From a virus: a stretch of 64,000 bases of DNA. The notes beneath the pieces were generated by a model. The model made no database searches. It worked only from the letters and a program-made list of their open reading frames with translations, and was not told the DNA's origin. The DNA is taken from positions 1 through 64,000 of the IMG/VR virus record IMGVR_UViG_3300045988_158927. One strand, given 5' to 3'. This document shows, one piece after another, positions 9,458-64,000 of the stretch. The position numbers and the translations under genes are program-made. Position 1 is the first letter of the stretch. Each line of letters opens with the position of its first letter.

Positions 9458-9459
9458 CC

Positions 9460-11315: not shown

Positions 11316-11324
11316 GAGAAAAAG

Positions 11325-11346: not shown

Positions 11347-11348
11347 GT

Positions 11349-11762: not shown

Positions 11763-11795
11763 AAAAAAAAGTCCGCTGTTGTTAGCAACGGGCTC
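11763..11795 (-). terminator. possible terminator after ssb (weak, bulged stem + U8)
   Basis: The minus strand reads CCCGUUGcuaaCAACaGCGG followed by UUUUUUUU. The stem is imperfect. Confidence 0.35.
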
Positions 11796-11806
11796 TATTC
11801 TATCGT

Positions 11807-12181
11807 TTAGAACGGGATGTCATCATCATCGTCGAATTTTGGCGTCTTTTTGGGTTTAGGCGGCGCTGATACCCGCTCTTCGCCCTCGCCTTTCTTGCCA
11901 TCGCCAACCGGGAACATCACGCGCTCCGCGATGATGTTTGTATAGGTGGGCGAATCTTCGTCCTTTTTGAAATATTCAATCCGGCCTTGAATGTTGATGC
12001 CCTTGCCTCGACTGAAATGCTTCTGCACAAACTCGCCGGTTTTGCCGAACGCGGTAACCTTGTGCCACTGGGTTTTCTCATCCCCGTTAAAGTATTCGGT
12101 GGTTGCCACTGAGAAGCGCACACCAGCGGAAAACTCTTCAGGGTCTTTGCCAAGACGGCCGTTAAGAATGACGATATTCAT
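11807..12181 (-). CDS. ssb: single-stranded DNA-binding protein
   Basis: OB-fold pattern NIVILNGRLGKDPE...TQWHKVTAFGK...GINIQGRIEY and the canonical acidic tip DDDDDIPF. RBS AGGAAA. Confidence 0.92.
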   Translation of the reverse strand: MNIVILNGRLGKDPEEFSAGVRFSVATTEYFNGDEKTQWHKVTAFGKTGEFVQKHFSRGKGINIQGRIEYFKKDEDSPTYTNIIAERVMFPVGDGKKGEGEERVSAPPKPKKTPKFDDDDDIPF

Positions 12182-16805: not shown

Positions 16806-17256
16806 GCTTTGCCATCCGTTCCATGCGGTTGATTCGCTCTTCCAGAGCGGAGATCAATTGTTCCTTGTGCTGGAAGACAGGACTTTGGTGCTGCGACGCC
16901 AGCAGCGTGCCGCTTTTGATGCGTGAAATAATGGCGTTATCGTAGACACCGACCTTTTGAGCCGTTCGCCTGATCGACCATCCCTTGCCCATGAGGTCAA
17001 CGATCATATCTAGCTGATCTTGCGTCATCCGCTTACCAGACGGTCGCGCCTGACGTTTTGTCCCTGTCTCTTCTTCGGCGCGGTTCAGAGATACGTAAAC
17101 CGTGGCCTCACTCATCCCGAACTCTTCAGCCAATTGCTTGATGGACAGGCCGTCGTTATGACGGTCGAGAACCCGGCGAACGAACGCCGAACGGACGCCC
17201 GTAACCTTCTCGCAGATGTTGTTGGATTTGACGTTGGAATCGATGGTGATATTCAT
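16792..17256 (-). CDS. DNA-binding protein with two HTH modules
   Basis: LSIKQLAEEFGMSEATVYVSLNRA and WSIRRTAQKVGVYDNAIISRIKSG. Confidence 0.6.
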   Translation of the reverse strand: MNITIDSNVKSNNICEKVTGVRSAFVRRVLDRHNDGLSIKQLAEEFGMSEATVYVSLNRAEEETGTKRQARPSGKRMTQDQLDMIVDLMGKGWSIRRTAQKVGVYDNAIISRIKSGTLLASQHQSPVFQHKEQLISALEERINRMERMAKHGIY

Positions 17257-17549
17257 TGGTTGTTGTCCATGATGTACTGAAGGAACCCGGCAAAGACGAG
17301 GGATTTGTTGTCGATGTGCAGGGATTGATGAACCGGGGAACTGACGAGCAACCCCCAGAGTTTGCCGTAGCGGATGATCTTTACACCGGGCTTGCTAGAT
17401 GCCACGATGGTTGGATGTTCGGTGAAAACTTCACTCATGAGCCGTCCGAACGCTTGCGATGCTTTGTGTTCGTTCGGAAACTTGCGCTCTTCCTGAATGC
17501 TCTTGCCGTCGAAGATTCGGACAGTTGAATGATGACGCTGGATGTTCAT
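17253..17549 (-). CDS. hypothetical protein
   Basis: 98-aa ORF, RBS GGAAAG, stop/start coupled to the downstream gene. Confidence 0.5.
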   Translation of the reverse strand: MNIQRHHSTVRIFDGKSIQEERKFPNEHKASQAFGRLMSEVFTEHPTIVASSKPGVKIIRYGKLWGLLVSSPVHQSLHIDNKSLVFAGFLQYIMDNNQ

Positions 17550-17597
17550 GTTCTTTCCGTGGGATTGTGGCCCGCCTTCCGACGGGCCGATGGTTGA

Positions 17598-17858
17598 TTA
17601 TTTGGCGTCTTTCATGACGACAAAGTACGTATTGCCTTTGTCCTCGTAGAATCCGCAGTTATTCGCACCATCGATGCATTCGAGATCGCCGGCGAAGCTG
17701 TCCATGATCTCCCGGTCAATCGTCACACGGCCGACACCGATAGCGTGGCCATAGTCGATATGCCGGATTTCTTCTTTGACGATTTGCGCATCCTTGATGC
17801 TGTAGTGATTTTTCATCAGCATCATAGTCAGGCGTACGGTGCGTTGTTGCTTGTTCAT
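17598..17858 (-). CDS. hypothetical protein
   Basis: 86-aa ORF with RBS GGAG, downstream of a sigma70-like promoter. Confidence 0.55.
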   Translation of the reverse strand: MNKQQRTVRLTMMLMKNHYSIKDAQIVKEEIRHIDYGHAIGVGRVTIDREIMDSFAGDLECIDGANNCGFYEDKGNTYFVVMKDAK

Positions 17859-17906
17859 GGTTCTACTCCGTTGGAAGTGTGTAGCGCGTAGTGCGCTGTC
17901 TGTTGA

Positions 17907-18623: not shown

Positions 18624-19553
18624 TCAATCCAGACGGTAGTAACGGTAGACAACCGACGGGGGAACCCACGTTGACGGATCAAGATTGAGCATCGCGCACG
18701 TCTCTTCCCATTTGACCTTAGCCGTTTCGTCGTGGGCGTCAGCCGTATAGAACTCCGGAAAGTCTTTATAGAACGCGACAAGGTGCGGGTCTTTCTCGGA
18801 GAGCTTCATCTTCGCCGGCCGGCCGCGCTTGCGCTTGAATTCTTCTTTCATTTCCTCGCCTTCTTCCTGCCAATGGGCGGGCATACCGTCCATTTGCAAC
18901 TCTTCGACAGACTTCCGATTCGGGGCGGTTCCGGGGCGTGCCAGCGACCATCCGCGACGCGAGTAATAGAGCGTCATGATCCCAGAGACATGCCTTGGCA
19001 ACCCGAACGGGTTGTTTTTGAGGTCAACGTGAACCCGGATGACGTTCTTAGTATCGACAAGCTTGGCAATGGCGTTGTCACGCAGCCAATAGACAAGCTT
19101 GATCAATTCCTCCGTACTCATCTTGTTAACGACACGGAAGCTACCCAACTCCGGGTCATGTTTCTTGCGCGGGGCCTTGTATTCCTGCACTTCGGTGGCG
19201 GTTTCGGTGGTGGTGGTTTCCATTTTCTTTGGTCTACCTCGACGGTTTGGGGTTTGAGTGAGACGCCGGTAAATCTCTGATGCCGGCCCTGTTTTGATCG
19301 TTACTTCTCCGTTTGCACCGTTATAGATCATGGCCATCCCTCGCCCGTCCGGTGTCGTGATGATCTCGACAGCAAGATGGTTTTTATGATCCAAAAATCG
19401 ATCACGCATCGCGCCGGACGATTGCTTGCCCATGACCTCAAATGCCTTGCAGAACGCTTGGTATGGCAGTGAATCCATGGACGAGAACGTAATGGATGTG
19501 ACAGGCGAGGATGACATGGACCGGGTCCCTATAGACGGCAAACGGGTGAGCAT
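18624..19553 (-). CDS. basic protein with two AT-hook motifs
   Basis: PNRRGRPKKM and KRKRGRPAKM (GRP cores flanked by K/R). It is the first gene of the leftward arm next to the iteron module. The start codon is uncertain (19565 GTG, 19553, 19478 or 19430). Confidence 0.5.
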   Translation of the reverse strand: MLTRLPSIGTRSMSSSPVTSITFSSMDSLPYQAFCKAFEVMGKQSSGAMRDRFLDHKNHLAVEIITTPDGRGMAMIYNGANGEVTIKTGPASEIYRRLTQTPNRRGRPKKMETTTTETATEVQEYKAPRKKHDPELGSFRVVNKMSTEELIKLVYWLRDNAIAKLVDTKNVIRVHVDLKNNPFGLPRHVSGIMTLYYSRRGWSLARPGTAPNRKSVEELQMDGMPAHWQEEGEEMKEEFKRKRGRPAKMKLSEKDPHLVAFYKDFPEFYTADAHDETAKVKWEETCAMLNLDPSTWVPPSVVYRYYRLD

Positions 19554-19688
19554 AGTACCGCGCACTACCCCACAGTGTCAAGCCGTAGCGTTTCGTATTG
19601 TTGCGAATGTCGCAAAGTTACCAAAAGATTCACGCCGATAGATAGCGCCGACAGAACGCGCCATGACCGCTTCGAAAATACACACTTC

Positions 19689-20077
19689 AAAATTGGCGGT
19701 AATTTTTCTTACCCCCCTTCCTCCGAGTAGTTAGACCCCTAAGCAATCACGTCGAAAAAATTGGCGGTAAATTTTCAGACATGAGTTCAACATGAGTTGA
19801 ACATTTAACGAACATTTATTCAACATGGTTTCAACGTTGCGTATCGTTTTAGAAAGAACAAGGAAATTGGCGGTAATTTTTCTCTCAACGTACATCAACG
19901 TGATAAACGAGAATTGTTCTCGTGTGTCTCACAAGATTTAAATAATTCTCCAAAAATTACCGCCAATTTTTCTCTCACGTTTCGCAATCTTAAAATTCGA
20001 TTAAGGCCCGAAACGGGGGTTCTTGTCATTTTTCCACACATTGAAATCTTGAGTGAAAAATTACCGCCAATTTTTTC
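19689..20077. repeat. iteron set: GAAAATTGGCGGTAATTTTTC x3 forward, x2 inverted
   Basis: Forward copies at 19689-19708, 19757-19776 and 19863-19882. Inverted copies (GAAAAATTACCGCCAATTTTTC) at 19952-19972 and 20055-20077. Confidence 0.9.
19781..19835 (+). repeat. five tandem 11-bp units, consensus ATGAGTTCAAC
   Basis: ATGAGTTCAAC ATGAGTTGAAC ATTTAACGAAC ATTTATTCAAC ATGGTTTCAAC, with one unit per helical turn. Confidence 0.85.
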
Positions 20078-20638
20078 AACGTGCAATTTCAATTGTTAAA
20101 TCGAGGATTCATGCGGGTTTCCGGGCGGTGCGGCATAGTTTTTGACATTGTTAAATCTCATTAAACGAATTTCTATTTTTTTTCTTCGTGAGGACCAGAT
20201 ATAAAAAAAGGTTTTTTCAAGATACCCCTATATATAGGGGTAGGTGGAAACACATGAAATTGCCGGGAGCCTCGGTCGGTGGTTCGGGTTGTCCGCCGGC
20301 TCACCCCGGGGGGGGGAGGGGGGTGGAAATATTGCCCGCATCCTGCCGACTACGAGCGGTCGAGACCCGGGGTATCTGGTGCGGGGAATTCGGGCGGAAT
20401 TATTTGGGATGCATCCGGGAATTCGGCTCGAATTATTCGGGGTGAGAGCTGCCAGAGATCAGGCGCTCTCATTGGTAGAGAGGACGGGGCTACCAAACGG
20501 ACCTGACGGTCCGGCTCTACTGTCTCGGCTCTCTATAGATAGGCGGTCAGTGCCGGTTGCTGGGAAGCGTCAGCGATCTTGACTAGCCGGCCGGTCTCGT
20601 GGGACCATAGATACATCCACTTCACTTTGGAAGAATCC

Positions 20639-23191
20639 ATGAGCTACGAGAACATCATCAAGGTACTGAACCCTAACGCCCCGGTCTGGGCCGTCACGTC
20701 GGCTACTCGCACGACGACGATGAATCCGAAACAACCCTATGTCATCGACAGGGACGGCAAGCCGTCTTTGGTACGGCCTGGGGACTGGGCGTCGCGACTG
20801 TATGACCTGCTGGACTGGATCGAGACCAAGCCTGCATCACGTCAGAAGAATCTGCGCATCGGCGCGTTCCTGACCAGAGAGGACGGTATCTGCATCCTTG
20901 ACGTGAAACTTGATGCCGACGGCAACCTGCCAGAGGACGTGGCCAAGATGCTGGCCGATGAGCCGACATACGCTGAATACACGACAGACCGCAAGGCCGT
21001 GCATATCTGGGGCTATGAGGCTGTGAAAGGGCTGGATGTGGTCGATCATCCGTCCATCAATTACTACACGTCCGGTTTCGTCGTTGTCACGGGCGACGGG
21101 TACGTTATGGACGGTATCGACTATTCGACGTTCCCGATTGGCATGGGGTCTCTGTCGATGGTCGCAAATTTCCTCGGCGCCAACCCGACGGAACAAGATC
21201 GAATTAACTACGCGCTGCTGGACGCGCCGCAGGATTCGAGCGACGAGGATGTAATCAAGCGGCTGCCAGACTGGACGAACGACATTGCCCTGTTCAATGC
21301 TGATGAAATCGCAGTGTTCTATGGGTCTGTCGGCGCTGCCCGCGCTCACGTCATCCGCGACATTCTGTCGATCAGCGGGAACGTTGCGCAAACCGTGCGT
21401 GTGGCGATGGCCAGATTCCCCCACGTTTTCGATGACCGTGCCAAAACTCTGTTGACGGTCCAGAACATCGGAAACTGCATGACAATCGAGAGCCGGCACT
21501 ACTATGACGAGGTGATGCGGCAGCAGAGCGAGGTATACGAGCCATACGGTGAGCTATTCGTGCCGTCATGGGTTCTTGAGGAAGGGGGTAAGGTGGATGC
21601 CTTGCCGGAAGAAAAAACGCCGCCAGAGCCCGCTATTCAAGCCGCAGAGGCATCGCCTAAAACCGTTGACGCTCTTCCAGCCGTCCCAGACAGTGAAGCC
21701 GAGCAGGAAGAGCTGTTTACCGGGGCTGCGCGGCTTTCCGGCGTGGACCTGTACGCCGACATTGCAGATACCCCCTTCGGACGGGCCATTACGGAAATGT
21801 CCCAGCGGATAACGGCCGACGGCGCGCCTATCCGTCTCTCGTATCTGATCGGCGCCATGCTGGGCGTGGCCTCGGGCCTGCTTGGGCGGCGCTACACGTC
21901 CGGGAAATTGTTCCAGCATCGGCAAGTGGGCAGTCTTTACGTCTCGATTGTCGGCGCGCCGGGCGTGGGGAAATCGTCTTCTTTCTCTCCATACATGCGG
22001 CTTGTCGGTCGCGAGCTGGACAAAGAGATCAAGGGGCAAGTCATCCCGTTTATCAATACGTTCCCTACCACAATGACGCAGTTTTACCCCTTTGCGATTG
22101 CCGCGCCGTCATCGTGCATCTACGTGGAAGACCAGAGCAAATTTTTCACAATGGCCAAGCTTTCCGATAACTACACTACGGAAACATTCCACGACATCAT
22201 GCGGTTTAGATTCGATGCAGCATCGGATAACGTGATGTGTTATAACCCGGTACGAGGCGGGAAGATCATGCAATTCCCGCGCTATTACACGTTCTCGGTT
22301 GTTGCCGATACGCAGATCGGGCCGTTTGTTCAATTCGTCTGCAATCGGGAGGTGTCGAGCAGCGGTCTGCTGTCTCGTATCTTGCCCATCATCGAGCAGC
22401 GCGGGCCGTCGGATAGCGTGTCGGATGATTACGTGGAGCCCGGTACGGTCGAGCGGCATATCTACCATCTTGCCCATGCTTACCTTGCGTCCAATCGCCC
22501 GTCGGAAGCGGAAGATGATGGATTCGAGCCGCCACGCTTCATCGAGCTTCAGTGTGAGCCCGAGGCGCTGGAATTGTTTCGGCATGGATTGAGTGTGTAT
22601 GAAAAAGTGCCGAGCTATAACAGTTTCGATAGTGACGCTCGCACTCGTATCGCCGCCCATAGCGCCAAGATCGCCCATATCGTCGCCGCCTATAATGCAG
22701 TGACCGAAGACGACAAGCCGCTTGTCACGTACCGGCTGATGCGCTGGGCAATGTCGTTTGTTCATGAGATGTTCATGCGCGCTGTCCCGATGTTCAATCT
22801 GGCCATCAACGGGGATGAGACCGCCATCATGAAGCGCGTGCTTTCGATGCTGGAAACGTATCGGAAGGACGGAACGATCAACGGCAAGCACTTCCAGAAC
22901 CGGCTAGGGATGAGGGTGCTTGATGCGTCGCAATGGCAGTTTTCAAACGAGATCATCCAGAAGATTTTTTCATCACTGGGGACCGTCGCAATCGGTCGAC
23001 AGACGTTAACTACGGCCTCGGTGCGAAACCTGTTGTCCCAAGGGAGGGGCGGAAATGGTATGCTTGTCGAATCAAAGCGGCAGGTGGATAGTGTGACGGG
23101 CATCATGTCTTCATGCTGGACCCTGAACCGCGACCTTATCCTGTTCCCGGAATTCCATATGCCCACGCTCTTCGAGGTCATCAACAAATGA
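20639..23191 (+). CDS. replication protein: primase-polymerase-like N-terminus fused to P-loop (DUF3987/D5-type) helicase-like domain
   Basis: RBS GGAAGAAT then ATG at 20639 (track start is TTG). N-terminal strands ICILDVKLD, KAVHIWGY and YYTSGFVVVTGDG. Walker A is VGAPGVGKSS. It sits next to the iteron module. Confidence 0.55.
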   Translation: MSYENIIKVLNPNAPVWAVTSATRTTTMNPKQPYVIDRDGKPSLVRPGDWASRLYDLLDWIETKPASRQKNLRIGAFLTREDGICILDVKLDADGNLPEDVAKMLADEPTYAEYTTDRKAVHIWGYEAVKGLDVVDHPSINYYTSGFVVVTGDGYVMDGIDYSTFPIGMGSLSMVANFLGANPTEQDRINYALLDAPQDSSDEDVIKRLPDWTNDIALFNADEIAVFYGSVGAARAHVIRDILSISGNVAQTVRVAMARFPHVFDDRAKTLLTVQNIGNCMTIESRHYYDEVMRQQSEVYEPYGELFVPSWVLEEGGKVDALPEEKTPPEPAIQAAEASPKTVDALPAVPDSEAEQEELFTGAARLSGVDLYADIADTPFGRAITEMSQRITADGAPIRLSYLIGAMLGVASGLLGRRYTSGKLFQHRQVGSLYVSIVGAPGVGKSSSFSPYMRLVGRELDKEIKGQVIPFINTFPTTMTQFYPFAIAAPSSCIYVEDQSKFFTMAKLSDNYTTETFHDIMRFRFDAASDNVMCYNPVRGGKIMQFPRYYTFSVVADTQIGPFVQFVCNREVSSSGLLSRILPIIEQRGPSDSVSDDYVEPGTVERHIYHLAHAYLASNRPSEAEDDGFEPPRFIELQCEPEALELFRHGLSVYEKVPSYNSFDSDARTRIAAHSAKIAHIVAAYNAVTEDDKPLVTYRLMRWAMSFVHEMFMRAVPMFNLAINGDETAIMKRVLSMLETYRKDGTINGKHFQNRLGMRVLDASQWQFSNEIIQKIFSSLGTVAIGRQTLTTASVRNLLSQGRGGNGMLVESKRQVDSVTGIMSSCWTLNRDLILFPEFHMPTLFEVINK

Positions 23192-51638: not shown

Positions 51639-52130
51639 ATGGGGCACCCCATGAAGAACGTTCTATTCAAGTTTGAAACGCTGTCGGAGAATGATCCGGC
51701 GGCCAAGAAAATCAAAAGCGCCTTTCTGAAGCTCGGCTGCAACGTCGTGGAAATGGCAGTGGGCAAGCCTAAGCGTAGTGCTGGCGTGAGTTACAAGGAA
51801 TTCGACTTCACTTTTGCCGATTCCCAGCGCGTGACGGCCCGTATCAAGCCCACCGGAGACGTGTATCAAGTGCTGCTGAATGGCAGCGTTTTGCCGCTGA
51901 AGAATCAGGATGAGCACCAAAAGGCCATCGAGGAAATTGCGTCGAAGCTGGACGGTGGGCGCGCTGCATTCCAGAAGAAGCTGGCACGTACCAAAGTAAC
52001 TATCCCTGCTGGCATCCGTAACACGGTCAAGGAAACGGAGAAATCCCTGACCGAGAAGCGCGACGCTCTGAAAGAGGTTATTGCCGATCTCGATAAGAAG
52101 ATCGAGGAAGCCACCGAGGCGCTGAAATGA
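51639..52130 (+). CDS. hypothetical protein sharing a module with the next gene product
   Basis: VGKPKRSAGVSYKEFDFTFADSQRVTARI resembles VSKPFKKNGTAQVAVVYELADGQTIGIYF in the 776-aa protein. C-terminal coiled coil. The start could be 51639 or 51651. Confidence 0.5.
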   Translation: MGHPMKNVLFKFETLSENDPAAKKIKSAFLKLGCNVVEMAVGKPKRSAGVSYKEFDFTFADSQRVTARIKPTGDVYQVLLNGSVLPLKNQDEHQKAIEEIASKLDGGRAAFQKKLARTKVTIPAGIRNTVKETEKSLTEKRDALKEVIADLDKKIEEATEALK

Positions 52131-54457
52131 TTCACGGCCTAAAGATGCTGACCGAGGCGCAACGCAAGGCGCGCAACGGCAAGGTCCAGCGCACTACGTT
52201 CGGCCCGCTCTCGTTATGCGTGGAAATCCCGGCAGGCTGGAGGAAAGGGGCGTCGTTCCTGACGGCTCACTACGGCTACATTTCCGGCACGAAAGCCCCG
52301 GATGGCGCGGCTATCGATATGTTCCTGTCGCCGCAAGCAAGCGTGACGGCTGACGTGTTTGTCATCGACCATATGAAGGGCGGCAAATTCGACGAACCTA
52401 AAGTGTTCCTCGGGTTCACTTCCAAAGTGGATGCCGAGGAAACCTATCGGAATGTATACGCGCAACGTGCGCCAGCAACCAAAATGACGATGACGCAGTT
52501 TCAACAATGGATGAAGGAAGGGGGCGCAATGCAACCGACGATCAAGGAAGAACCTAAGCTTCAAAAAGTCTACTGGGACAGTAACGGAGACCCGGATGTC
52601 CCGATGACGGAAATTCTCTACCAAATCCGCAAGACCGACCCTACTAGCCTTGCGCTTGAGCCGCTGACGCTTGACGACATCTACGGCGACGCTGACGAAA
52701 TCGTGGAGCTTGATGCTCTGGTAGTGCCCATGATGCGCCTTGAGCGCGTGGCCGGCATCATGCAAAACCAGATGAAGCGGTACGGGTCCGAGGCGCTTAA
52801 CTTCCAAGTGAGCAAGCCATTCAAGAAGAACGGCACGGCTCAAGTGGCGGTTGTCTATGAGCTTGCCGACGGCCAGACGATCGGCATCTACTTCCACAAT
52901 CCGGACGTGACACCGGCCAAGATCGCGCCGCAAGATGAGCTGATTTCTTGGAAATGGATGCTCAACAAGAAGGACATTACGATCCTTGTGGCGCCGGAAA
53001 AAGGGCAGGATTTGGACCCGCGTGAAGTGATGCGCCGCGTGGCCAAGATCGCCATCAAAAATCGTCCGACGTTCGAGCGGAACAACGCTGCCCGCGTCGA
53101 GCGTGTGGCGCGTGTGGAGGCGCTTAAGGCTGAAATTGTCGTTCTTGAAAAGGAAGTGGACGACAAGACGCATGAGCTGGAAATTCTCCGCATGAAACTC
53201 GAAGAGAAGCGGAACATGCCGGCACCTGAACCTGAGCCCGCGCCTGAAGTGATGCCTGAACCTGAAGTTGCGAGCGGCTCGAATGATGCGCCTATTCAAG
53301 AAGTCAAGAAAGGTAGGATGAGTAAGTATGATCCGGCGGTGGCAGCAGCCCTAGAGGAAAAGATTGCTAACCTTAATAGATTTTCTGATGTCAGAGACCT
53401 TCAGACTGCTATCCGTGACGCTGAACTTTCGCGCAATGATAAAAAGCGAATCAAGGAGATGTTGGAGCAGCGTGTAAGCGATATGAACCATGAGCGGTAT
53501 CTGAAAAAACAGGAAATGCTTAAAGAATTTGGCGAGCAATTGAAAGCCGCTGAATTTGAAGAGGAATTGTCTTTGGTTGAGGCGTTCATTCACAAAATCC
53601 CGGGTATTGATGAAGAGCATATGTCGCATCTTTATACGAGTATTAGTGACAAGCGCAGAGAACTTCAAATAAAGAAGAAAGCGGAAGAACGCAAAGCCGC
53701 CGAACAAGCCAAGCAAGCCGAGCCCACGCCCGAAGATCCGAAGGAAGAAACCCGGGAAGAGCGCGTGACCCGTCTGCATGACGCGGTTATGGTCCTGATC
53801 AATTCGGCCACGTCCATCGAAGACATTCGGAAGCTGAAGAAATCCGCGACGTTCAATGAATTCCGCTATGTCACCGAGGACACTTCAAGGGCAGCCGATT
53901 TCAATCAGCAGCGCGAGAGCATCCGCACGGCTCTCTACACCAAGAGCGCGGAACTGAACATGCCGCTCTACAACGAGATCATGCGCGAGATTCAGGCGGC
54001 TACTAGTGAGGCTGGTGTTTTGACGGCGCTTGAGAAGGTCGAAATGGTCCGGAACGACTTCCCGCCAGCCCAGCGTAACGAGATCACGCAGGCCGCCGAG
54101 GCACGCATTGAGGCACTGAATGCCGTTCCTGAGCCGCAAGCTACGCCGCTGCCTGAAGTGCAGTCGCCTATGCCAGAGGAACCCGCGCCAGAACCCGTCC
54201 ATGAGCCGGCGCCAGAACCCGTCGCGGAACAACCAGCCGAGGCAGTGAATGCTACGCCGCTGAATGCCCTGGTTAACCCGCAAGAAGCCGCCGACCGGGC
54301 CTATCTCGAAACGTTCGACCCGGCCACCGCTGACGATGCGCGCTTGGAAGAGATTGCTGCCCGCTACACGTCCGGCGAGATGTTGGAACTGCTGGAAAAG
54401 GCTTTGGCCAAATACGAGGAATACATGGTGGCTGCTGCCGAGGAATCGATGAAGTGA
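52127..54457 (+). CDS. 776-aa multi-domain protein: pyrophosphatase-fold-like N-terminus, central module, long acidic helical C-terminus
   Basis: ATGA coupling. LCVEIPAG...AHYGYISGTKAPDGAAIDMFL...DEPKVFLGF echoes family I PPase VIEIPA...NYGYI...DGDPVDVLV, but the loop is shortened and one Asp is lost. E/K/P-rich tail. Confidence 0.5.
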   Translation: MIHGLKMLTEAQRKARNGKVQRTTFGPLSLCVEIPAGWRKGASFLTAHYGYISGTKAPDGAAIDMFLSPQASVTADVFVIDHMKGGKFDEPKVFLGFTSKVDAEETYRNVYAQRAPATKMTMTQFQQWMKEGGAMQPTIKEEPKLQKVYWDSNGDPDVPMTEILYQIRKTDPTSLALEPLTLDDIYGDADEIVELDALVVPMMRLERVAGIMQNQMKRYGSEALNFQVSKPFKKNGTAQVAVVYELADGQTIGIYFHNPDVTPAKIAPQDELISWKWMLNKKDITILVAPEKGQDLDPREVMRRVAKIAIKNRPTFERNNAARVERVARVEALKAEIVVLEKEVDDKTHELEILRMKLEEKRNMPAPEPEPAPEVMPEPEVASGSNDAPIQEVKKGRMSKYDPAVAAALEEKIANLNRFSDVRDLQTAIRDAELSRNDKKRIKEMLEQRVSDMNHERYLKKQEMLKEFGEQLKAAEFEEELSLVEAFIHKIPGIDEEHMSHLYTSISDKRRELQIKKKAEERKAAEQAKQAEPTPEDPKEETREERVTRLHDAVMVLINSATSIEDIRKLKKSATFNEFRYVTEDTSRAADFNQQRESIRTALYTKSAELNMPLYNEIMREIQAATSEAGVLTALEKVEMVRNDFPPAQRNEITQAAEARIEALNAVPEPQATPLPEVQSPMPEEPAPEPVHEPAPEPVAEQPAEAVNATPLNALVNPQEAADRAYLETFDPATADDARLEEIAARYTSGEMLELLEKALAKYEEYMVAAAEESMK

Positions 54458-54480
54458 TAGGGTGATGGCCTAAAATCAGA

Positions 54481-54512
54481 ACGGTCGGAAGAGATTCCGG
54501 CCGTTTTTTTTT
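54481..54512 (+). terminator. rho-independent terminator
   Basis: ACGGTCGGAA-gaga-TTCCGGCCGT followed by T9. Confidence 0.8.
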
Positions 54513-54533
54513 GCGCAAAAAAAGGAACATCCA

Positions 54534-57500
54534 ATGACAGTTATTGAGAAGCTGAAGCTGATCAAAAACCTGAAAGCTGCACAAGCCCTTCCCCGCGACA
54601 CGATCCCTCAACGCCTCGCACGAATCAAGGCCATCAAGGCCGCGCTTGATGCGCTCAAAGGGGCAAAGGCTGAGGAACGTACCGCCGAGAAGGAATCCGT
54701 AGAAGCAGCGTTCAAGTTTGATGCAGAACGCAAGACCGCCGAACGCAAGAAGGCCAATGATGCGGCCTATGCGCTGCTGCAAAGCCTCGATGAGGGCAAG
54801 ACACTCACCGAAGAAGAAAAGGCCGTGCTGGCAGCGTATAGCGGTTGCGGCGGCGGTCTGATCAACCCGCTTACCGGAAAGACGGGCAGCGCGACGGAAT
54901 ACTACACGCCGAAGCCTATCGTCTCGGGCATGTGGGACATGCTGGGCGAATCGTTCGGGTTCAAAGGCGGTAAAGTGCTGGACCCGAGTAGCGGTACCGG
55001 CATTTTTGGGGCGACGGCGCCAAAGGGTGTCGTTATGCAAAGCGTGGAAATCAGCGAGGTTTCCGGCAAGATCAACAAGGCGCTTAACTCGAAAACCGGC
55101 AATAACGTTGCCATCGAGCCGTTCGAGGGCTTCGCAGCGCGCACGCCTGACGGCACGTTCGATGCTCTGGTAACTAACGTTCCGTTCGGTGATTCCGGTA
55201 TCCGGACTGCCAAAGGAATGGACCAGAAATATCAGGATCAAAGCCTGCAAGGCTACTTCCTGCTGCGCGGCCTCGATAAGCTGAAGCCGGGCGGCCTGAT
55301 GGCCGTGATTCTGCCGGGTAGTGTCGTTGCCAATCGTGGGGCACGTGAAACCAAAGTGCGGACCATGATCAGCCTGAAGGCCGAATTTTGCGGCGCCATC
55401 CGCTTGCCTAACAGTGTCTTTGAGACAACCGGCGCTGACGTGATTACGGACGTTGCCGTATTCAAGAAACACGGGACTGACGCGGCTGAAAAGATTGATG
55501 CTCTTTTCCGTGCGGGAAAATCCGATGAACTGCGAGAAATGGGCGTTCTCTATGAGGAATTCATCGACGGCAATTGGTTCAAGGGCGAAGGACGCAAGTA
55601 CCTGCACGGCGAGGAAGTGACCGTTAACGGGCGCTGGGGCGAGACGCAGAAAGTCGTTTCAACCAAAAGCGTTACGGAAATCGGCCCCCTGCTGCGAGAG
55701 CTTCGCTTCAAATCGCGCATCAACTGGGATGCTCTGGGGGCGGCTGATGTAAGCCTTGCCTATGACGTGGGCGACGAGATTACGGCACCAGATGGCACAC
55801 TGATGCGCTGGGACGGTGAAACGTTCGTGGAGGTCCAGCGCGCCGAAGCGAAGGTCAACCCGTTTGCCAAGGTCATCGAGGCAATGGACCTGACCGCGCT
55901 TCAGTTCTACTACGCAGACTTCAGTGACGATGAGGTGGCCGGCGCGCTGCAATACGTTGCAGACAATAACGTATCCGTCAAACCATGGGTCAATACGCTG
56001 AACCTTGGCAAGCGCATTGATGTTCTCGTTTGCGCGGCCGTCGAAGCGTTCGATGAGAAAGCCCCGACCGATAACCTTGGTGAAGAGCATCCGCGCCTGA
56101 CCGAGGACGTGCAAGCTTCCATCAAGGCAGCACGCAACGTCACGCCGAAAGAGAGCGCGAAAGGCGTCTACAACCGATTCAAGGCGTTTACCGATAGTGG
56201 CGTTCTGTCGCCCGTTTGGTTCGGGCAGGTGGCCGAGCTGAAGACTATCGAGAGCAATGCAGCCAAATTCGAGGTCGCAAAAGGCAGTCAGAAATGGGTC
56301 GGCATCAATGAGATGCGCAAAGCCGGCATTGACGTTGACGGTGAAGAATTCGTCCACAACGGCGACAAGGTTGCGCTGATGGATGAGGTCTGCACTGGCA
56401 AGGCCGCTGAAGTTATCGAGGCACTGAAGAACGCTGACGTACCGCCTGAGCGCAAAGCCCGTCAGATCGCGCTTGCGATGGAACGTATCGAGAAAATCGA
56501 CGTTTCCAAGATGATCTTTACGCTTACGACGAAGTACGTGTCAGCGGATGCTAAGGCGGAATTCCTGACCCTGTACGTGAGCAAATCGAACTATTCAGGC
56601 TTCCAAGCGCATGATGACATTGTTGTGCTGCCGGCGTCTGAGGTAAAGTATGTAGCGTTCGGGAACGTTGACAAACTGTTCGTGCGCGCACTTGTCGGCT
56701 ACGTGAACGATGGTCGCGTGTCGTTCGGGAACCTGAAGATTGACGGCGTTTCTGATGATGAGCAAAAGCAGGCGAAGCGCGACCTTCTCGACGACTATCG
56801 TAAGTACCTGAACAAGCTTGATACGCAATTCAACCTGTGGGTTCACTCGAATCGTGCGCTGAAAACCGCGCTGGATATCCGCCTGAATTCGGCTGAGAAC
56901 GCCTTCTTCAAAACGCAAGCCAGCGACGGCCCGCTGACGATTCCCGGCCTGTCCGGTGATATCCAACTGCACGGCTATCAGCGCGCTTTCGTGCGCAAGA
57001 TCGCAGCGCGATTCAATGGCATCAACTCGTTCGATGTGGGCCTCGGCAAGAGTTTCACGGCACTGGCCAGCGTGCAGTATGCGCAAGCCATCGGCGCGAA
57101 GAAAAAGACCGTTTTCGTCGTGCCAAAGTCCGTCATCACAAACTGGGTGAAGGAAGCCAACCGCCTGTTTTCCGCTGACGTTGCCAATGACATTCTGGTA
57201 GTCGGTGCCGTCGAGAAGAAAGGAAAGCTTGACGTTGATTCCAAGCGATTCGACGCAGATTTGCAGCGCATCGCGGATAACGTTCACTCGAAGATTTTCA
57301 TGACGGCCGAAGCATTCCAGCGTATCCGCATCCGGGAAGAGGATGTTAAGGAATATCTGGACGCCATGCGCCTGAACGACCGCGATGCTTACGGGGACAA
57401 AATTTCTGACGCTGATAGCAATCGTGTAGAAAGCCGTCTGTATGCCATCGAGAAGATTCTCACGGAAGACGGCAAGAGCGAAGGCGCGCCGTTTTGGCAT

Positions 57501-60500
57501 ACGCTGGGCATTGATTCTGTCGTGTTCGATGAGATGCACGTGAACAAGAATGCCGTGATTGCCATCGGTGTGCGCGGCGCCAAATTCCTGTCGCTGCCGC
57601 CTGCATCCAAGAAATCCGTGGACGTGATGTGCAAGACTTGGCTGATCCGTCGTGACCATGGTTCCGGTGTGCTGGGCCTGACCGCTACGCCTATCACTAA
57701 CTCGCCGCTGGAAATCTACGGGATGATGTCCATCGTGGAAGGCATGGACGCAGTGAATGATGCGTGCGGCGTCGCTGGACCGGGCGATTTCATCAAGGAA
57801 TCTGTCATCGTCGAAAACCGTGCAGAACTCGGCGTGGACGGCGAAGAGCGGATGATGGATGTTTTCGTCGGCTTGAAAAACACGCAGATTCTGGCGCGTC
57901 TCGTTCGTGGCGTGTGCGATATCAAGACGGCCGCCGACGCCGGGAACATTGTCCAGCCTGACAGTGAAGAGGTGGTGCAAGGCGTGCCGCTGGATAACGA
58001 CACGGACCGGCAATTGCGTCGGATGATCCTTGCCTACCAGATCATGCAGGGGGCGGTTGACGCAGGCCCGGAAATCCCCGAGCGCGTGGCAGAGGTTTAT
58101 GGGTCCAAAGTCAAGACGCTGATGTCCCCGCTCAACCTTCTGTCGAATATGTCGAAACTGATGGTTGATGAGGACGCGGCCAAGAAACGCACGGTCTATA
58201 TCGGTGGTTCCGAAGAGCTTACGGAGAAATTCAACGGCCTGAAGATCAAGGAGAAACGCGCCTATGGCCCGCGCCTTGATGCAAGCGAGACGGTCAAAGT
58301 GACGGTCAATCCTGAAGACGAGGAAGACGTTGAATTCATCGTCCAGATTGGGGCAGTCTTCGATGGTGGAAAGACGATCATCGATACAACGTCATGGGAG
58401 ACTCAAGACAAATTCGAGGCACTTGCCGCGAAGCTTGACGTACCCTTGGACGTGAAGCCGTCGGAGAAATTCAAGGCCCTTATCGAGAACATGAAGGCCG
58501 AGGCTGCTAACGTGCGCGGCATCAAGAATGGCGAGCGCATCGAGCATGCCAAGCAGATCGTCTTCTGCGACATGCTGGCAACCCATAACAAACTGAAGCG
58601 GTTCATTTGCTCACGTATGGGCATCCCCGCCTCGGAGGTCATCATCGTTACGGGTCAGCGTAACGGTTCGCCTGAAGAAATTCAGGACGTGCAAGACGGG
58701 TTCAATGACGGACGCTATCGCATCATCATTGCCAACGAAAAGGCCGAGGTCGGCATCAACCTGCAAAAAGGCACGCAAGCTATCCATCACCTGACGATTG
58801 GATGGACTCCGGACAGTTTGCAGCAGCGTAACGGACGTGGCGTTCGGCAAGGTAACGAGACCGCGAAAGTGAACGTCTATTACTACGATGCCGAAGGTAC
58901 TTTCGACCAGATGAAGCGGTCAATGGTCAACAAGAAGGCCGACTGGATCGAGAAGGTAATGACGGGCGAAGGCCGCACGGTGGCCGTGAATGCCGGCCTG
59001 ACACGCGAGCAAATGGACGCGCTGATCGATGGTATGGGCGACGCCGAGAGCATTGCCAAAGCGCAAGCCCAAGCGGAAGAGAAAGCCAAGAAGGAAGCGC
59101 GTAACCGTGCCGTCACTCAACAGATGATCATGATTGAGGTTGCGCAAAAGAGCGAGGAAGAGCTGAAAAAGGCGGCCGATATGGCAAGCTGGGCCACGTC
59201 GATGATCAACAAGCTTATTACGCCGATCAATCAGCAACTGGAAGTCTCGCGCAAGCAATTGGCACTGTCTCGCAGTGATAAGACCAAGGAACGGCTTACG
59301 CAGACCATTGCCGAGCTTGAGAAGCGGCAGGGTGAAATCAGGACGCGCTATCGGAACTATTCTGATCCGTCCGTGCGTGAGGAATGGCAAAACGACATTG
59401 AGGCGCTGCAAGATAGCGTCAAGAGCGCCAATGAGCAGGTGGAGAACCTGTCTGGCGATGGCGGCCTGAATGAACGTGAAATCCAGCACGTCAAGGACGG
59501 AGAGTTCTTCAGGGTTGGCGATGAACTTGCTTTCCCGGGTCAGTTTGTCATGACCAAAAACGACGGTATCGGGGTTGTCGTGAAGAACATCAGGAAATCC
59601 CTTTGCCTCGCAACTCTTCGCAAGGATGATAGCCGGCGTTCCGCTGCCTTGGATACCTCCCCGGTCGGCATGGAGCGACTGATCGATGAGGATAAGGTTC
59701 CTCACGACATTCTGAAAGAGTTTGCCAAGATCGATACGTATCAGGCGATGCAGGAAGAGGAAAGAACGTTCGAGACCGTTAAGGCGATCACGCAATACAC
59801 GCAGGTTGTCGCCAAATGGAAGGGCGACCTTGCTAACGTTCTGTGGAAAGAGGGCGTACCCGTTCTGATGATGGGTTCCTACGGTTATCCGCTGTTCGGG
59901 ATTAGCCGTGATGCGCATCGGGATTCCGTCATCAATTACGATCCGTATAGCGTCGCCACGCTCAAAGATGATGGCACATGGACCGAGGTTGACATTGAAA
60001 CGACGGCTGCTGCTGCCGCGCAATATCTGATCTCGATTGATGCTGTTATGAGCGATTTGATGGTGGTACGGAACGAGAAATTCCGGAAGCTTCTGTCCCA
60101 GAACATCGAGAACCATTACCTCAAAGACCCGGCCATCGTTGAGCAGGCAATCGAACTGGCCAAGCAGGAATACTCGTCATACCGTTACGGTAGCTACGAC
60201 ATTCCAAAAGTGGCGCGGATGCTTTCAATCCTTGGCCTTCGACGTGCGGCAAAACTGCACTACAACCTCTATTCGGCAGAGGATTTCCCGGGCGTGGAAT
60301 CGATGCAGGGTCAGATGGAAGTGTTCGTCAAACAGGCCCGCGAAGAGGAGGAGCGCGTTAATCAGGAATGGGAGGAGAAGAAACGGCGAGAGCGCGAAGA
60401 GGCGGAAGCCAAGGCAGCACAAGATGCGGCGAACATGGAGAAATGGGTGTCCGAGGGCTTCCCGGCTGATCAGGAATTCGGCATCACTGGATTCCGCACG

Positions 60501-60674
60501 TTCGGCTTTAAGGATCGGATCAAGCAGGCTGAACAAGAGGCAGGCGGTAAAGCCCGCTGGCACGGTGACAGCAAGCAATGGATCATTCACGGGAAGGCGC
60601 TGGACAAACTGTTCAAGGATGAATCGTTTGCCGATGCCGTCAAGGAAAAAGAGCTGATCATCAAGCCCGTCTGA
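54534..60674 (+). CDS. polyvalent protein: N6-adenine DNA methyltransferase + SNF2/SF2 helicase + ~600-aa C-terminal region (P1 DarB-like)
   Basis: MTase motif X EYYTPKPIV, motif I VLDPSSGTGIFG (nt ~54975), motif IV LVTNVPFG (nt ~55176). Helicase motifs: LHGYQRAF...DVGLGKSF, FDEMH (57528), LTATPITNSP, QQRNGRGVRQG (~58821). Confidence 0.8.
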   Translation: MTVIEKLKLIKNLKAAQALPRDTIPQRLARIKAIKAALDALKGAKAEERTAEKESVEAAFKFDAERKTAERKKANDAAYALLQSLDEGKTLTEEEKAVLAAYSGCGGGLINPLTGKTGSATEYYTPKPIVSGMWDMLGESFGFKGGKVLDPSSGTGIFGATAPKGVVMQSVEISEVSGKINKALNSKTGNNVAIEPFEGFAARTPDGTFDALVTNVPFGDSGIRTAKGMDQKYQDQSLQGYFLLRGLDKLKPGGLMAVILPGSVVANRGARETKVRTMISLKAEFCGAIRLPNSVFETTGADVITDVAVFKKHGTDAAEKIDALFRAGKSDELREMGVLYEEFIDGNWFKGEGRKYLHGEEVTVNGRWGETQKVVSTKSVTEIGPLLRELRFKSRINWDALGAADVSLAYDVGDEITAPDGTLMRWDGETFVEVQRAEAKVNPFAKVIEAMDLTALQFYYADFSDDEVAGALQYVADNNVSVKPWVNTLNLGKRIDVLVCAAVEAFDEKAPTDNLGEEHPRLTEDVQASIKAARNVTPKESAKGVYNRFKAFTDSGVLSPVWFGQVAELKTIESNAAKFEVAKGSQKWVGINEMRKAGIDVDGEEFVHNGDKVALMDEVCTGKAAEVIEALKNADVPPERKARQIALAMERIEKIDVSKMIFTLTTKYVSADAKAEFLTLYVSKSNYSGFQAHDDIVVLPASEVKYVAFGNVDKLFVRALVGYVNDGRVSFGNLKIDGVSDDEQKQAKRDLLDDYRKYLNKLDTQFNLWVHSNRALKTALDIRLNSAENAFFKTQASDGPLTIPGLSGDIQLHGYQRAFVRKIAARFNGINSFDVGLGKSFTALASVQYAQAIGAKKKTVFVVPKSVITNWVKEANRLFSADVANDILVVGAVEKKGKLDVDSKRFDADLQRIADNVHSKIFMTAEAFQRIRIREEDVKEYLDAMRLNDRDAYGDKISDADSNRVESRLYAIEKILTEDGKSEGAPFWHTLGIDSVVFDEMHVNKNAVIAIGVRGAKFLSLPPASKKSVDVMCKTWLIRRDHGSGVLGLTATPITNSPLEIYGMMSIVEGMDAVNDACGVAGPGDFIKESVIVENRAELGVDGEERMMDVFVGLKNTQILARLVRGVCDIKTAADAGNIVQPDSEEVVQGVPLDNDTDRQLRRMILAYQIMQGAVDAGPEIPERVAEVYGSKVKTLMSPLNLLSNMSKLMVDEDAAKKRTVYIGGSEELTEKFNGLKIKEKRAYGPRLDASETVKVTVNPEDEEDVEFIVQIGAVFDGGKTIIDTTSWETQDKFEALAAKLDVPLDVKPSEKFKALIENMKAEAANVRGIKNGERIEHAKQIVFCDMLATHNKLKRFICSRMGIPASEVIIVTGQRNGSPEEIQDVQDGFNDGRYRIIIANEKAEVGINLQKGTQAIHHLTIGWTPDSLQQRNGRGVRQGNETAKVNVYYYDAEGTFDQMKRSMVNKKADWIEKVMTGEGRTVAVNAGLTREQMDALIDGMGDAESIAKAQAQAEEKAKKEARNRAVTQQMIMIEVAQKSEEELKKAADMASWATSMINKLITPINQQLEVSRKQLALSRSDKTKERLTQTIAELEKRQGEIRTRYRNYSDPSVREEWQNDIEALQDSVKSANEQVENLSGDGGLNEREIQHVKDGEFFRVGDELAFPGQFVMTKNDGIGVVVKNIRKSLCLATLRKDDSRRSAALDTSPVGMERLIDEDKVPHDILKEFAKIDTYQAMQEEERTFETVKAITQYTQVVAKWKGDLANVLWKEGVPVLMMGSYGYPLFGISRDAHRDSVINYDPYSVATLKDDGTWTEVDIETTAAAAAQYLISIDAVMSDLMVVRNEKFRKLLSQNIENHYLKDPAIVEQAIELAKQEYSSYRYGSYDIPKVARMLSILGLRRAAKLHYNLYSAEDFPGVESMQGQMEVFVKQAREEEERVNQEWEEKKRREREEAEAKAAQDAANMEKWVSEGFPADQEFGITGFRTFGFKDRIKQAEQEAGGKARWHGDSKQWIIHGKALDKLFKDESFADAVKEKELIIKPV

Positions 60675-62847: not shown

Positions 62848-62871
62848 AGCCCGCCGAGTGCGGGCTTTTTT
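62848..62871 (+). terminator. rho-independent terminator
   Basis: AGCCCGC-cgagt-GCGGGCT followed by TTTTT. Confidence 0.85.
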
Positions 62872-62946
62872 GTGCCCGTCGCCGGCATCATCCGCAACGA
62901 TTGGCGACGATTGGCTATGAGTGGGCAATCACGATAAGCAATGTTA

Positions 62947-63315
62947 GAAAATTGGCGGTAATTTTTCCTACCCCCCTCCCCCGGGGTGCATTTAACAGGT
63001 GTAACAATTGGCGGTAAATTTTCAGTCGTGAGTTCAACATGAGTTCAACGTATACTCAATATGAGTTCAACGTTAGTTCATCGTTGCGTAACATGTCCAA
63101 AAGAACAAGAAAATTGGCGGTAAATTTCCGCTCAACGTGGTAAATGAGAACGATTCTCGTGTGTCTCACAAGATTTAAATAATTCTTGAAAAATTACCGC
63201 CAATTTTTCTCTCATGTTTGGGAACGTTCGTTATACGATTAAGCCGAAAAACGGGGGTTTTTCTCATCTTTCGCAACGTTGAACTCTTTCCTGAAAAATT
63301 ACCGCCAATTTTTAC
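62947..63315. repeat. iteron set, copy 2: three forward and two inverted 20-mers
   Basis: Forward at 62947-62967, 63005-63023 and 63109-63129. Inverted at 63188-63209 and 63293-63315. Confidence 0.9.
63028..63082 (+). repeat. five tandem 11-bp units, consensus (A/G)TGAGTTCAAC
   Basis: GTGAGTTCAAC ATGAGTTCAAC GTATACTCAAT ATGAGTTCAAC GTTAGTTCATC. Confidence 0.85.
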
Positions 63316-63842
63316 ATATGTTAAATCGAATTGTTAAACGAGTGTTTATGCGGTTCTTCAGGCGTCGGACACAAAATTTAACGTTGTTAAAAAGTATTTT
63401 CCGAATTTCTATTTTTTTCTGTCGTGAGGGTCAGATATGAAAAAAGGTTTTTTTGAATAGACCCCTATATATATAAGGGGGAGAAATTAGGGAAATTGCC
63501 CCGAGCCCCCCCCCGGAAGCGCGCACGGATGGGGCGTCTCTCACCCCGGGGGGAGGGGGGGGGAATATTGCCGGCGAATTACGGAGGGGGTAGGAAAAAT
63601 TCGGGGAAATTAGAGCAGGAATTTCCGGGCCGTGCGATGGCCTCGGGGAGGTCTGCCAGAGGAACGGGCGATGGGGCGGAAGCCCCTACTCTGGAAGAGA
63701 CCGCCGACGCATCGATGCCGGACCTGCTGGCGCGTGTCTGTCCACGTCATCCGTCTGTAGCTTGTGAGGCACGTTGGGTTGACGGCAGGCCGGGTACTAG
63801 AGAGAATGCAGCCATCCCACACACAAGCCGATGAGGCCAACC

Positions 63843-64000
63843 ATGAACAAGCCGTCCCTTTCCTACCTGCCCGCCTGTATGTCTTTCCGGACCCTTCGCG
63901 CCAAGAGCGACGCCTACCTGATCGGATTCCTTGGGGGCTTCGATGACGTGGACGCCATCCGTGCGGCGCTGGCGAAGTTTCGCGGCGCTTCCTATGTCCA
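63843..64000 (+). CDS. hypothetical protein, C-terminus outside the window
   Basis: RBS GAGG 6 nt before the ATG. MNKPSLSYLPACMSFRTLRAKSDAYLIGFLGGFDDVDAIRAALAKFRGASYV..., open to the window end. Confidence 0.5.
   Translation, partial: MNKPSLSYLPACMSFRTLRAKSDAYLIGFLGGFDDVDAIRAALAKFRGASYV

Follow-up and report, generated by a model that had tools for sequence, protein, structure and literature searches.

The 64,000-nucleotide stretch analysed here, positions 1 to 64,000 of the IMG/VR virus record IMGVR_UViG_3300045988_158927 and referred to throughout as the window, carries two colinear direct repeats of a non-coding module of ~0.65 kb, at 19689-20336 and 62948-63575. Each copy holds five 20-bp iterons, and among relatives of this phage the core of all five changes as a set, together with the N-terminal domain of a single phage protein of 297 residues, gp297. 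We read the modules, with moderate confidence, as iteron-type replication-origin platforms for one phage protein, similar in kind to oriL and oriR of phage SPP1.

Two colinear copies of one module

Alignment of 19660-20420 against 62910-63620 with MAFFT gave a mean column identity of 82% over ~700 columns, and the divergence between the copies consists of substitutions and small indels that separate perfectly kept elements (Table 1). A first-pass annotation of the window had described a diverged, colinear second copy of the module 43.2 kb away, and our alignment agrees with it in coordinates as well as in colinearity, the similarity not being limited to shared short iterons. The order of elements it gave is present in both copies, with three forward iterons followed by two inverted ones in each, and copy 2 does lie behind a terminator and ahead of a different gene. 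The perfect blocks of 33 and 26 nt that it reported were found at 19917/63154 and 19952/63189, respectively, and no exact block longer than 33 nt is shared by the window copies.

The repeated elements are specific to the modules. The 17-mer AAATTGGCGGTAAWTTT, allowing up to two mismatches, occurs 10 times in the window, always inside a module, where 0.03 occurrences would be expected by chance. The motif CCCCTATATA is, within the window, found in the modules only, ATGAGTTCAAC-like units cluster in them, and period-11 arrays were detected in both copies by TRF. Similarity between the copies extends from iteron 1 to ...GAAATATTGCC, and self-comparison of the window showed that the module is the sole repeat linking the two regions, the arcs of the genome between them being otherwise dissimilar. 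Searches for the module elsewhere gave no match by blastn in phage and plasmid collections, only chance matches in a scan of GTDB genomes for paired iterons (including an unrelated tandem repeat in a Methylobacter metagenome-assembled genome), and nothing credible in Rfam, at the gathering threshold and then at E<=1.

Some features seen in the window copies do not belong to the conserved module. A hairpin between iterons 3 and 4 (GAGAAnnnTTCTC), listed as a module element by the first-pass annotation, does occur in both copies of the window, but in several relatives a non-pairing allele stands in its place. The relative 169252 does not retain a small hairpin that lies between iterons 4 and 5, and open reading frames of 112 aa over both G-tract regions were rejected as genes, being unrelated to each other.

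A contig of 89,692 bp, assembled from a human oral metagenome (ERR589669, PRJEB6997), matches the window at 100% identity, and a second assembly of that sample gave the same phage at 89,700 bp. Contigs of 88-90 kb were present in more than ten further assemblies, and a 131-kb scaffold (1.47 units) contains one gene twice, 89,037 bp apart; the phage genome, with a unit of 89.0-89.7 kb, is therefore circular or circularly permuted. The module copies are 43.2 kb apart one way and ~46.4 kb the other way, nearly opposite each other, with ~48% of the genome length between them on the shorter side. This unit length and spacing, the 82% identity, the differing flanks and independent assemblies that run through both copies uphold the earlier statement that the second copy is neither an assembly wrap-around nor a terminal repeat. 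Conservation of both copies in related phages, a point that the same annotation had raised, was seen in every relative where both positions are visible, at the same two positions each time. A miniature inverted-repeat transposable element was also considered and rejected, as the GC-rich inverted ends degenerate in relatives and the module does not change its two positions.

Iteron type switches together with part of gp297

Relatives carry one of two iteron types. Type I iterons have the form AAATT-GGCGGTAA-WTTT, with the 8-bp core GGCGGTAA, and type II iterons the form AAATT-RRTCATCT-TTTT, with the 8-bp core RRTCATCT. The type is uniform across all five iterons of a module and is the same in both copies of one genome, as observed for copies 1 and 2 of IMG 19477 and for both arcs of HMP 7000000512. 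When window copy 1 is compared with type II modules, 9-10 of the 40 core positions are identical vs. 73-80% of the backbone (Fisher p 1e-10 to 1e-13); compared with other type I modules, all 40 core positions are identical and the backbone is at 71% (Fisher p 3e-6). The 11-bp array, the 33-nt block, the AT-rich part, the palindrome and the G-tract are unchanged between the types. Backbone alleles between the iterons are shuffled irrespective of copy position or iteron type: window copy 2 is 96-100% identical to the copy 1 of another genome in four of six blocks, and the backbone of window copy 1 is closest to that of type II modules. The copies therefore behave as interchangeable and recombine or convert.

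The 6.7 kb left of copy 1 were scanned in four type I and three type II genomes, and fixed differences between the types were found only at 19196-19650 (15-44 per 150 nt vs. 0-5 elsewhere), which corresponds to the leader and the first ~95 codons of the gp297 gene. This N-terminal domain (codons 1-~95, ~19233-19517) is 43-47% identical between types and 74-97% identical within a type, and the remaining 209 residues are 84-93% identical both within and between types. Type I iterons go with a type I N-terminal domain in seven genomes and type II with type II in five to six, with no discordant genome, and no segment covarying with iteron type was found on the PmgG side. Since its N-terminal domain and leader alone among the flanks switch with the iterons, gp297 is, judging from sequence covariation, the likely common binder of both modules. 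Two binding platforms for one protein had been among the possibilities named by the first-pass annotation, and this covariation lends it strong support.

Two other candidates for covariation were discarded. A signal in primase residues 451-550, seen at three vs. two genomes, vanished when two more genomes (L103 and L104) were added, and the helicase intein, likewise type-linked at first sight, proved to be missing from a type I genome. This intein (Hom_end_hint, 23279-23681) interrupts the gene of a superfamily 2 (SF2) helicase. The window and IMG 11936 have it; the helicases of 19477, HMP56 and NODE_11 lack it and are 612 aa long. Its distribution is unlinked to iteron type.

The type-specific N-terminal domain of gp297 is followed by a conserved centre and C-terminus. 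The protein has two AT-hook-like RGRP motifs, one at KRKRGRPAK (AT_hook match with E 0.016, below the Pfam cut-off) and a second behind the N-terminal domain. No Pfam or PHROG family was matched by gp297, nor any helix-turn-helix (HTH) or repressor family, and no sequence relative was found in the PDB. Its 23 close homologues all fall within this phage clade, and a profile search of 1.84 billion representatives returned, besides its own cluster and a fragment, only a single distant protein, P0025 (E 1e-4). In the AlphaFold2 model the N-terminal domain has a beta-alpha-beta4-alpha topology (pLDDT 62-80), and Foldseek comparison of the model with PDB and BFVD gave no match at E<=0.001.

P0025 (313 aa) is encoded in a 771-kb bacterial scaffold (L099), inside a P4-like island with integrase and AlpA. 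Over 8751-12116 of that scaffold, integrase comes first, then P0025 and a non-coding gap of 1.25 kb with an AT-rich patch, and beyond the gap a divergent 117-aa gene, followed by a DUF3987 primase-helicase and AlpA. The three-part layout of candidate binder, gap and primase-helicase, as around copy 1, is therefore conserved across very distant relatives. An apparent similarity between the gap and the leaders in the window was rejected (E 0.57, not significant).

Duplex stability and flanking genes

The two least stable duplex segments of the 64 kb are the AT-rich stretches just right of iteron 5 in each module (z 4.1-4.4), the one of copy 1 being the least stable at 80 bp and the one of copy 2 at 120 bp. 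Their AT content is 70-80%, vs. a window mean of 46%, and directly after them come the GC-rich CCCC(TA)nGGGG palindrome and the G-tract (72-80% GC). Iteron spacings of 103-106 bp, or ~10 helical turns, are conserved, and other spacings vary.

Copy 1 occupies the divergent gap between the operons of gp297 and of the primase-helicase, the latter followed by the SF2 helicase with its intein and then by a PriCT_2 protein. Copy 2 is flanked by a PmgG-like gene and by the gene that starts at 63843. A location in or beside the initiator and replication genes, usual for an iteron-type origin, is seen for copy 1, between the candidate binder and the primase-helicase and with the same layout in the P4-like island, but not for copy 2. 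The gene-proximal sigma-70-like promoters of the three flanking operons lie outside the module, ~110 bp (gp297) and 470-510 bp (rightward promoters) from the nearest iteron, and these distances of 110-510 bp argue against a simple operator function. In both copies, iteron 5 overlaps with a weak promoter-like site on the minus strand, and an internal transcript from it is possible.

Table 1. Coordinates of the two modules, their elements and adjoining features in the window
Feature	Position	Strand	Basis or remark
Module copy 1, iteron 1 to end of G-tract/GAAATATTGCC	19689..20336	+	alignment with copy 2
Copy 1 iteron 1 (AAAATTGGCGGTAATTTTTC)	19689..19708	+	
Copy 1 iteron 2	19757..19776	+	
Copy 1 array, five 11-bp units (ATGAGTTCAAC type)	19781..19835	+	unchanged between iteron types
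Copy 1 iteron 3	19863..19882	+	
Copy 1 33-nt block TTCTCGTGTGTCTCACAAGATTTAAATAATTCT	19917..19949	+	best-conserved module part in all relatives
Copy 1 iteron 4, inverted	19952..19971	-	
Copy 1 iteron 5, inverted; preceded by one inverted 11-mer unit	20055..20074	-	
Copy 1 AT-rich stretch, candidate DNA-unwinding element	20135..20224	.	z 4.2-4.3
Copy 1 palindrome CCCCTATATATAGGGG	20225..20240	.	
Copy 1 G-tract CTCACCCCGGGGGGGGGAGGGGGGTGGAAATATTGCC	20300..20336	+	partly inverted repeat of C-tract behind iteron 1
Module copy 2	62948..63575	+	alignment with copy 1
Copy 2 iteron 1	62948..62967	+	
Copy 2 iteron 2, one flank mismatch	63004..63023	+	
Copy 2 array, five 11-bp units	63028..63082	+	
Copy 2 iteron 3	63110..63129	+	
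Copy 2 33-nt invariant block	63154..63186	+	
Copy 2 iteron 4, inverted	63188..63207	-	
Copy 2 iteron 5, inverted	63293..63312	-	
Copy 2 AT-rich stretch	63370..63461	.	z 4.1-4.4
Copy 2 palindrome CCCCTATATATATAAGGGGG	63462..63481	.	
Copy 2 G-tract	63540..63575	+	
gp297 gene, 297 aa, candidate iteron-binding protein	18624..19517	-	covariation
gp297 operon sigma-70-like promoter (TTGACA-18-TACTAT)	19552..19581	-	conserved in relatives; outside module, ~110 bp from iteron 1
Primase-helicase, 850 aa, DUF3987, phrog_3022	20639..23191	+	first gene right of copy 1
Intrinsic terminator	62848..62875	+	closes 43-kb rightward gene block ahead of copy 2
First gene right of copy 2, runs off window	63843..64000	+	opens run of >20 small genes without family match

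Each module is separated from the gene-proximal promoter by a conserved, GC-rich leader, at 20340-20600 and 63600-63790. The copy 2 type of leader has a CCAGAG...CTCTGG stem around a GGGGC-GGAA-GCCCC hairpin, the loop of which is GGAA, GTGA or GTAA among relatives, too little variation to judge an RNA structure. A motif similar to that of the copy 2 leader, GGGGAKGTCTGCCARRGGAACGG, occurs twice in the gap of the P4-like island. Right of the G-tracts there are also AATT-N7-AATT dyads (e.g. GGGAATTCGGGCGGAATTATTTGGG), two behind copy 1 (20393-20440) and one behind copy 2 (63598-63625). As they are alike in type I and type II genomes, these dyads are probably sites for a different, conserved factor.

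The copies divide the genome into two arcs. Every gene of arc A (20639-62824) is on the + strand, and the arc includes the replication genes (DUF3987 primase-helicase, SF2 helicase, PriCT_2 protein), dUTPase, ThyX, a RecT-like annealing protein, the small and large terminase, and P1-like DarA_N/DarA-like, DarB-like and PmgG-like proteins. Arc B contains more than 20 small genes without a family match, baseplate, spike and tail-fibre genes, SSB, exonucleases, HTH proteins and gp297. No major capsid, portal, sheath or tape-measure protein was recognised by PHROGs or Pfam in the window and in L083, L091 and L100, which together cover ~85 of the 89.7 kb; either this clade has head genes that cannot be recognised from their sequence, or these genes fall within the ~4 kb outside the inspected part.

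Half-genome contigs

Many assemblies contain contigs of arc A only (41-43 kb) or arc B only (45-46 kb). Most of these single-arc contigs terminate inside a module, a Logan contig ends exactly at the 33-nt block, and the 55-nt end overlap of one "circular" B-only contig falls exactly within the invariant block; such ends fit repeat-induced breaks. The arc-A contigs L081, L101 and L102 begin exactly at the CCCC(TA)nGGGG palindrome or the G-tract, which suggests that these elements, besides the repeat itself, cause coverage or assembly breaks.

Other contigs carry a single module away from their ends. An A-only metaSPAdes contig (L104; ERZ772764 NODE-220, 42,274 bp) has the order PmgG, module, primase in mid-contig, and its ends meet near 54.3 kb. 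The reciprocal order, gene 63843, module, gp297, is found in the B-only contigs L073 (IMGVR 3300045988_164202) and L010/L016 (3300045988_169252), and one B-only contig has its single module in mid-contig. Records in Tisza-type catalogues may have been rotated after circularisation. These mid-contig modules could represent ambiguous graph paths in strains with nearly identical copies, or real products of reciprocal recombination. In the window strain, the contig assembled at k=119 through both copies is unambiguous because the copies share no exact block longer than 33 nt, and therefore the cointegrate of the two arcs is real.

If the module breaks or mis-closes metagenomic assemblies in this manner, 42-46-kb "circular" half-genomes result, and virus catalogues may list them as complete circular viruses.

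Discussion

Two origins, one of the possibilities offered by the first-pass annotation, appears to be the function that fits the modules best. In the mechanism that we propose, the variable N-terminal domain of gp297 would read the five iterons of each module, and its RGRP motifs may help by touching the A/T flanks. The 11-bp array and the 33-nt block would presumably be bound by conserved factors, for which the primase-helicase or a host protein are candidates. Melting would occur in the adjoining 80-120 bp, closed off by the palindrome and the G-tract. Copy 1 would be the primary origin, and copy 2, in a late intergenic gap behind a terminator, could serve either as a second firing origin or as a secondary site like the oriR of SPP1. 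In the latter case, bound gp297 would stall replication forks and cause a switch to recombination-driven concatemer synthesis, and the RecT-like annealing protein, exonucleases and SSB encoded by the phage are functions that a recombination switch needs. Iteron origins are characterised by repeats for a cognate initiator, and the counterpart here is the five iterons per module, which gp297 would bind and whose cores are swapped as a set with its N-terminal domain.

SPP1 is, by analogy, the closest known system. Its oriL and oriR have a like organisation, with direct repeats together with an AT-rich unwinding element, and both are bound by gp38 (G38P); oriL is located at the replication genes and oriR in a late intergenic segment bracketed by transcription signals (PMC6316719, PMC3485210). 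It has been proposed that gp38 at oriR forms a fork barrier that leads to recombination-dependent concatemer synthesis, and the theta-to-sigma switch of SPP1 uses exonuclease, annealing protein, SSB and resolvase (PMC6316719, PMC3485210). The phage described here resembles SPP1 in having two separated, like-organised non-coding copies, one at the replication genes and the other late intergenic, and exonuclease, annealing protein and SSB are encoded in both phages. However, oriL lies inside gene 38, whereas copy 1 adjoins the gene of the candidate binder, and the distance between the SPP1 origins is 12-13 kb in a genome of 44 kb, compared with 43 of 89.7 kb here. Furthermore, gp297 shows no sequence or fold relation to gp38, the DnaB-type helicase and loader of SPP1 are replaced by the DUF3987 primase-helicase, SF2 helicase and PriCT_2 protein, and the modules add inverted iterons, the 11-bp array, the palindrome and the G-tracts.

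Several observations weigh against an origin function. A DnaA-box-like site is present once, as TTTTCCACA in copy 1, and is conserved neither in copy 2 nor in relatives, and no replication gene adjoins copy 2. The iterons are all found to one side of the AT-rich part, in contrast to the origins of Staphylococcus aureus pathogenicity islands and phage-inducible chromosomal islands (PICIs). The sequence CGAATTTCTATTTTTTT is exactly conserved inside the AT-rich "unwinding" region, which points to a promoter or a site for a protein and not just to a high AT content; inspection and scans for a rightward sigma-70 promoter within this part gave no convincing match. In addition, gp297 has no recognisable initiator (Rep/O/RepA/DnaA-type) or DNA-binding family, the AlphaFold2 model of the whole protein is weak (mean pLDDT 56), and even its best local matches in Foldseek, the RnlA repeats resembling TATA-binding protein, are not significant, so that the resemblance suggested for the modelled N-terminal domain is a lead only. 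Lastly, the gap beside P0025 in the P4-like island contains no comparable iterons.

Other phage origins have parts of this organisation. The lambda ori consists of iterons, an AT-rich region and a palindrome in that order, and the N-terminal domain of lambda O sets iteron specificity and varies between phages, with a C-terminal part conserved for contacts with the helicase machinery. The order of elements is alike in our modules, and so is a candidate binder with a variable N-terminal domain and a conserved remainder, but lambda has a single origin with four direct iterons inside the O gene, and gp297 is unrelated to O. Satellite phage P4 requires two separated repeat-bearing cis sites, ori and crr, which are ~4.5 kb apart and, unlike our modules, not full duplicates. 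In PICI origins the iterons surround an AT-rich melting site, and allelic variants of Pri-Rep/ori exist (PMC6092414). As in P4 and the PICIs, a primase-helicase is encoded next to the putative origin, and the sole distant homologue of gp297 lies in a P4-like island beside a DUF3987 primase-helicase. In those elements, however, the helicase itself (in P4 the alpha primase-helicase) reads the iterons, and in this phage specificity tracks a separate protein, the primase not covarying.

The first alternative to an origin function is a regulatory or architectural platform, with gp297 as a transcription regulator or nucleoid-type organiser that acts at both modules and controls the two long rightward blocks and the leftward gp297 operon at a distance, possibly by looping. 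We regard this as unlikely, although each module does lie ahead of a long rightward block (20639-62824 and 63843 onward), and repressor-operator pairs just as typically have an N-terminal domain that covaries with its sites, in which case types I and II could be immunity groups. The promoter-like site over iteron 5 in both copies would also fit, and iterons ~10 turns apart suit cooperative binding. Nevertheless, no iteron overlaps the sigma-70-like promoters adjoining the three flanking operons, gp297 matches no HTH or repressor family, and no integrase or lysogeny genes were found in ~85 kb of the genome; overlap with the gene-proximal promoters, a known repressor family and lysogeny functions, which characterise immunity regions of the lambda or P1 C1 type, are therefore not seen here. 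A regulatory role also leaves unexplained the extreme duplex instability next to a GC clamp, and the pairing with a primase-helicase in the P4-like island.

A second alternative is plasmid-prophage maintenance, in which the phage would be a P1-like phage-plasmid with gp297 and copy 1 as its plasmid-type replicon, copy 2 would act as a handcuffing array that limits copy number, as with P1 incC and incA, or a centromere-like site, and types I and II would be incompatibility groups. In the P1 replicon, the origin iterons of incC and the control iterons of incA are both bound by RepA, and the second array controls rather than initiates. Two arrays of one iteron, probably for one protein, are likewise present here, the Dar set and PmgG-like genes recall P1, and five iterons per array would suit such a replicon. 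The 5 x 11-bp arrays resemble parC-type centromeres, as in plasmid R1, and in every assembly, that of the 1.47-unit scaffold among them, the phage comes as a free unit of ~89 kb that lacks host flanks. On the other hand, ParA, ParM, ParB, TubZ, RepA and addiction genes were not found among the Pfam and PHROG hits in ~85 of the 89.7 kb, and neither a partition NTPase nor a centromere-binding protein, which would accompany a parS or parC centromere, adjoins a module. Moreover, the P1 arrays flank repA within ~1.5 kb, and incA consists of iterons only, whereas copy 2 is 43 kb away and retains the whole module with AT-rich part, palindrome and G-tract, more than titration or handcuffing requires. 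Plasmid maintenance thus seems a distinctly improbable role.

The half-genome contigs raise the question of a split genome. The genome could be a dissociable cointegrate and the single-module contigs real molecules, namely circles of ~43 kb (replication, nucleotide metabolism, terminase and Dar genes) and ~46 kb (gp297, tail fibres, baseplate and early genes), each of which would retain one origin-like module, and the same protein would read both. Such a tailed-phage genome would be bipartite, with the module likened to the "common region" that both genome parts share in bipartite geminiviruses, and we give the idea slight credence. That the modules are themselves recombination sites, direct repeats through which the 89.7-kb genome splits into these arc A and arc B circles and rejoins, we find very unlikely. 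The existence of reciprocal single-module contigs for both arcs, the shuffling of backbone alleles between the two copy positions and the encoded RecT-like protein and exonucleases speak for it, but the 55-nt overlap in the invariant block and the many contigs that end in the module are the usual outcome of an assembler at a repeat. There is no site-specific recombinase nearby, and the window copies, which share no longer exact block, are spanned without ambiguity at k=119.

The junction of two tandem related elements, which the first-pass annotation had also allowed for, or an assembly artefact, is essentially excluded: the 43.2-kb spacing is phage-sized and the module marks a change of gene block, but the arcs share no further similarity, neither resembles a complete phage (arc A holds all of the terminase, replication and Dar genes that were recognised, and arc B the tail-fibre, spike and gp297 genes), and the same A-B order recurs in more than ten independent 88-90-kb assemblies and the 131-kb scaffold.

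Returning to the modules as candidate replication origins, what is new here is that two origin-like modules of iteron type are combined with an orphan protein as the likely source of specificity, and with two recognition codes that have been swapped in nature. If our reading is correct, this would be the second, independent tailed phage with two origin-like module copies after SPP1, and the roles considered for a second copy, whether an extra initiation site or a programmed fork barrier for the theta-to-sigma switch, would become testable in a second system. The two iteron "alphabets" on a shared backbone, each matched to its own gp297 N-terminal domain, would constitute a natural specificity experiment in which both the recognition element (an 8-bp core) and its reader (~90 residues) are pinned down. 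Likewise, gp297 would represent a new family, and a very narrow one, of proteins that bind DNA sequence-specifically and are linked to DUF3987 primase-helicases.

Other features of the genome

Among named phages, Xanthomonas phage Rb1 is the nearest by the PmgG-like protein (44% identity), but it was set aside as a relative for comparison, its gene order being different; tblastn of the primase against phages gave no match, and a tRNA scan found none. A P1-like antirestriction cluster at 51639-60674, directly 3' of the terminase genes, encodes a DarA_N protein, a 776-aa DarA_N/InPase protein and a 2046-aa DarB-like methyltransferase-helicase. The 3' part of the tail-fibre gene (1512 aa), at 14-2000, is made up in part of seven diverged 66/78-nt units and four 47-nt units. 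Mosaic replacements and indels among relatives are concentrated in two hot spots, 16844-17206 and 17549-17859, which fall in a 154-aa double-HTH protein and around two small open reading frames and are uncorrelated with iteron type.

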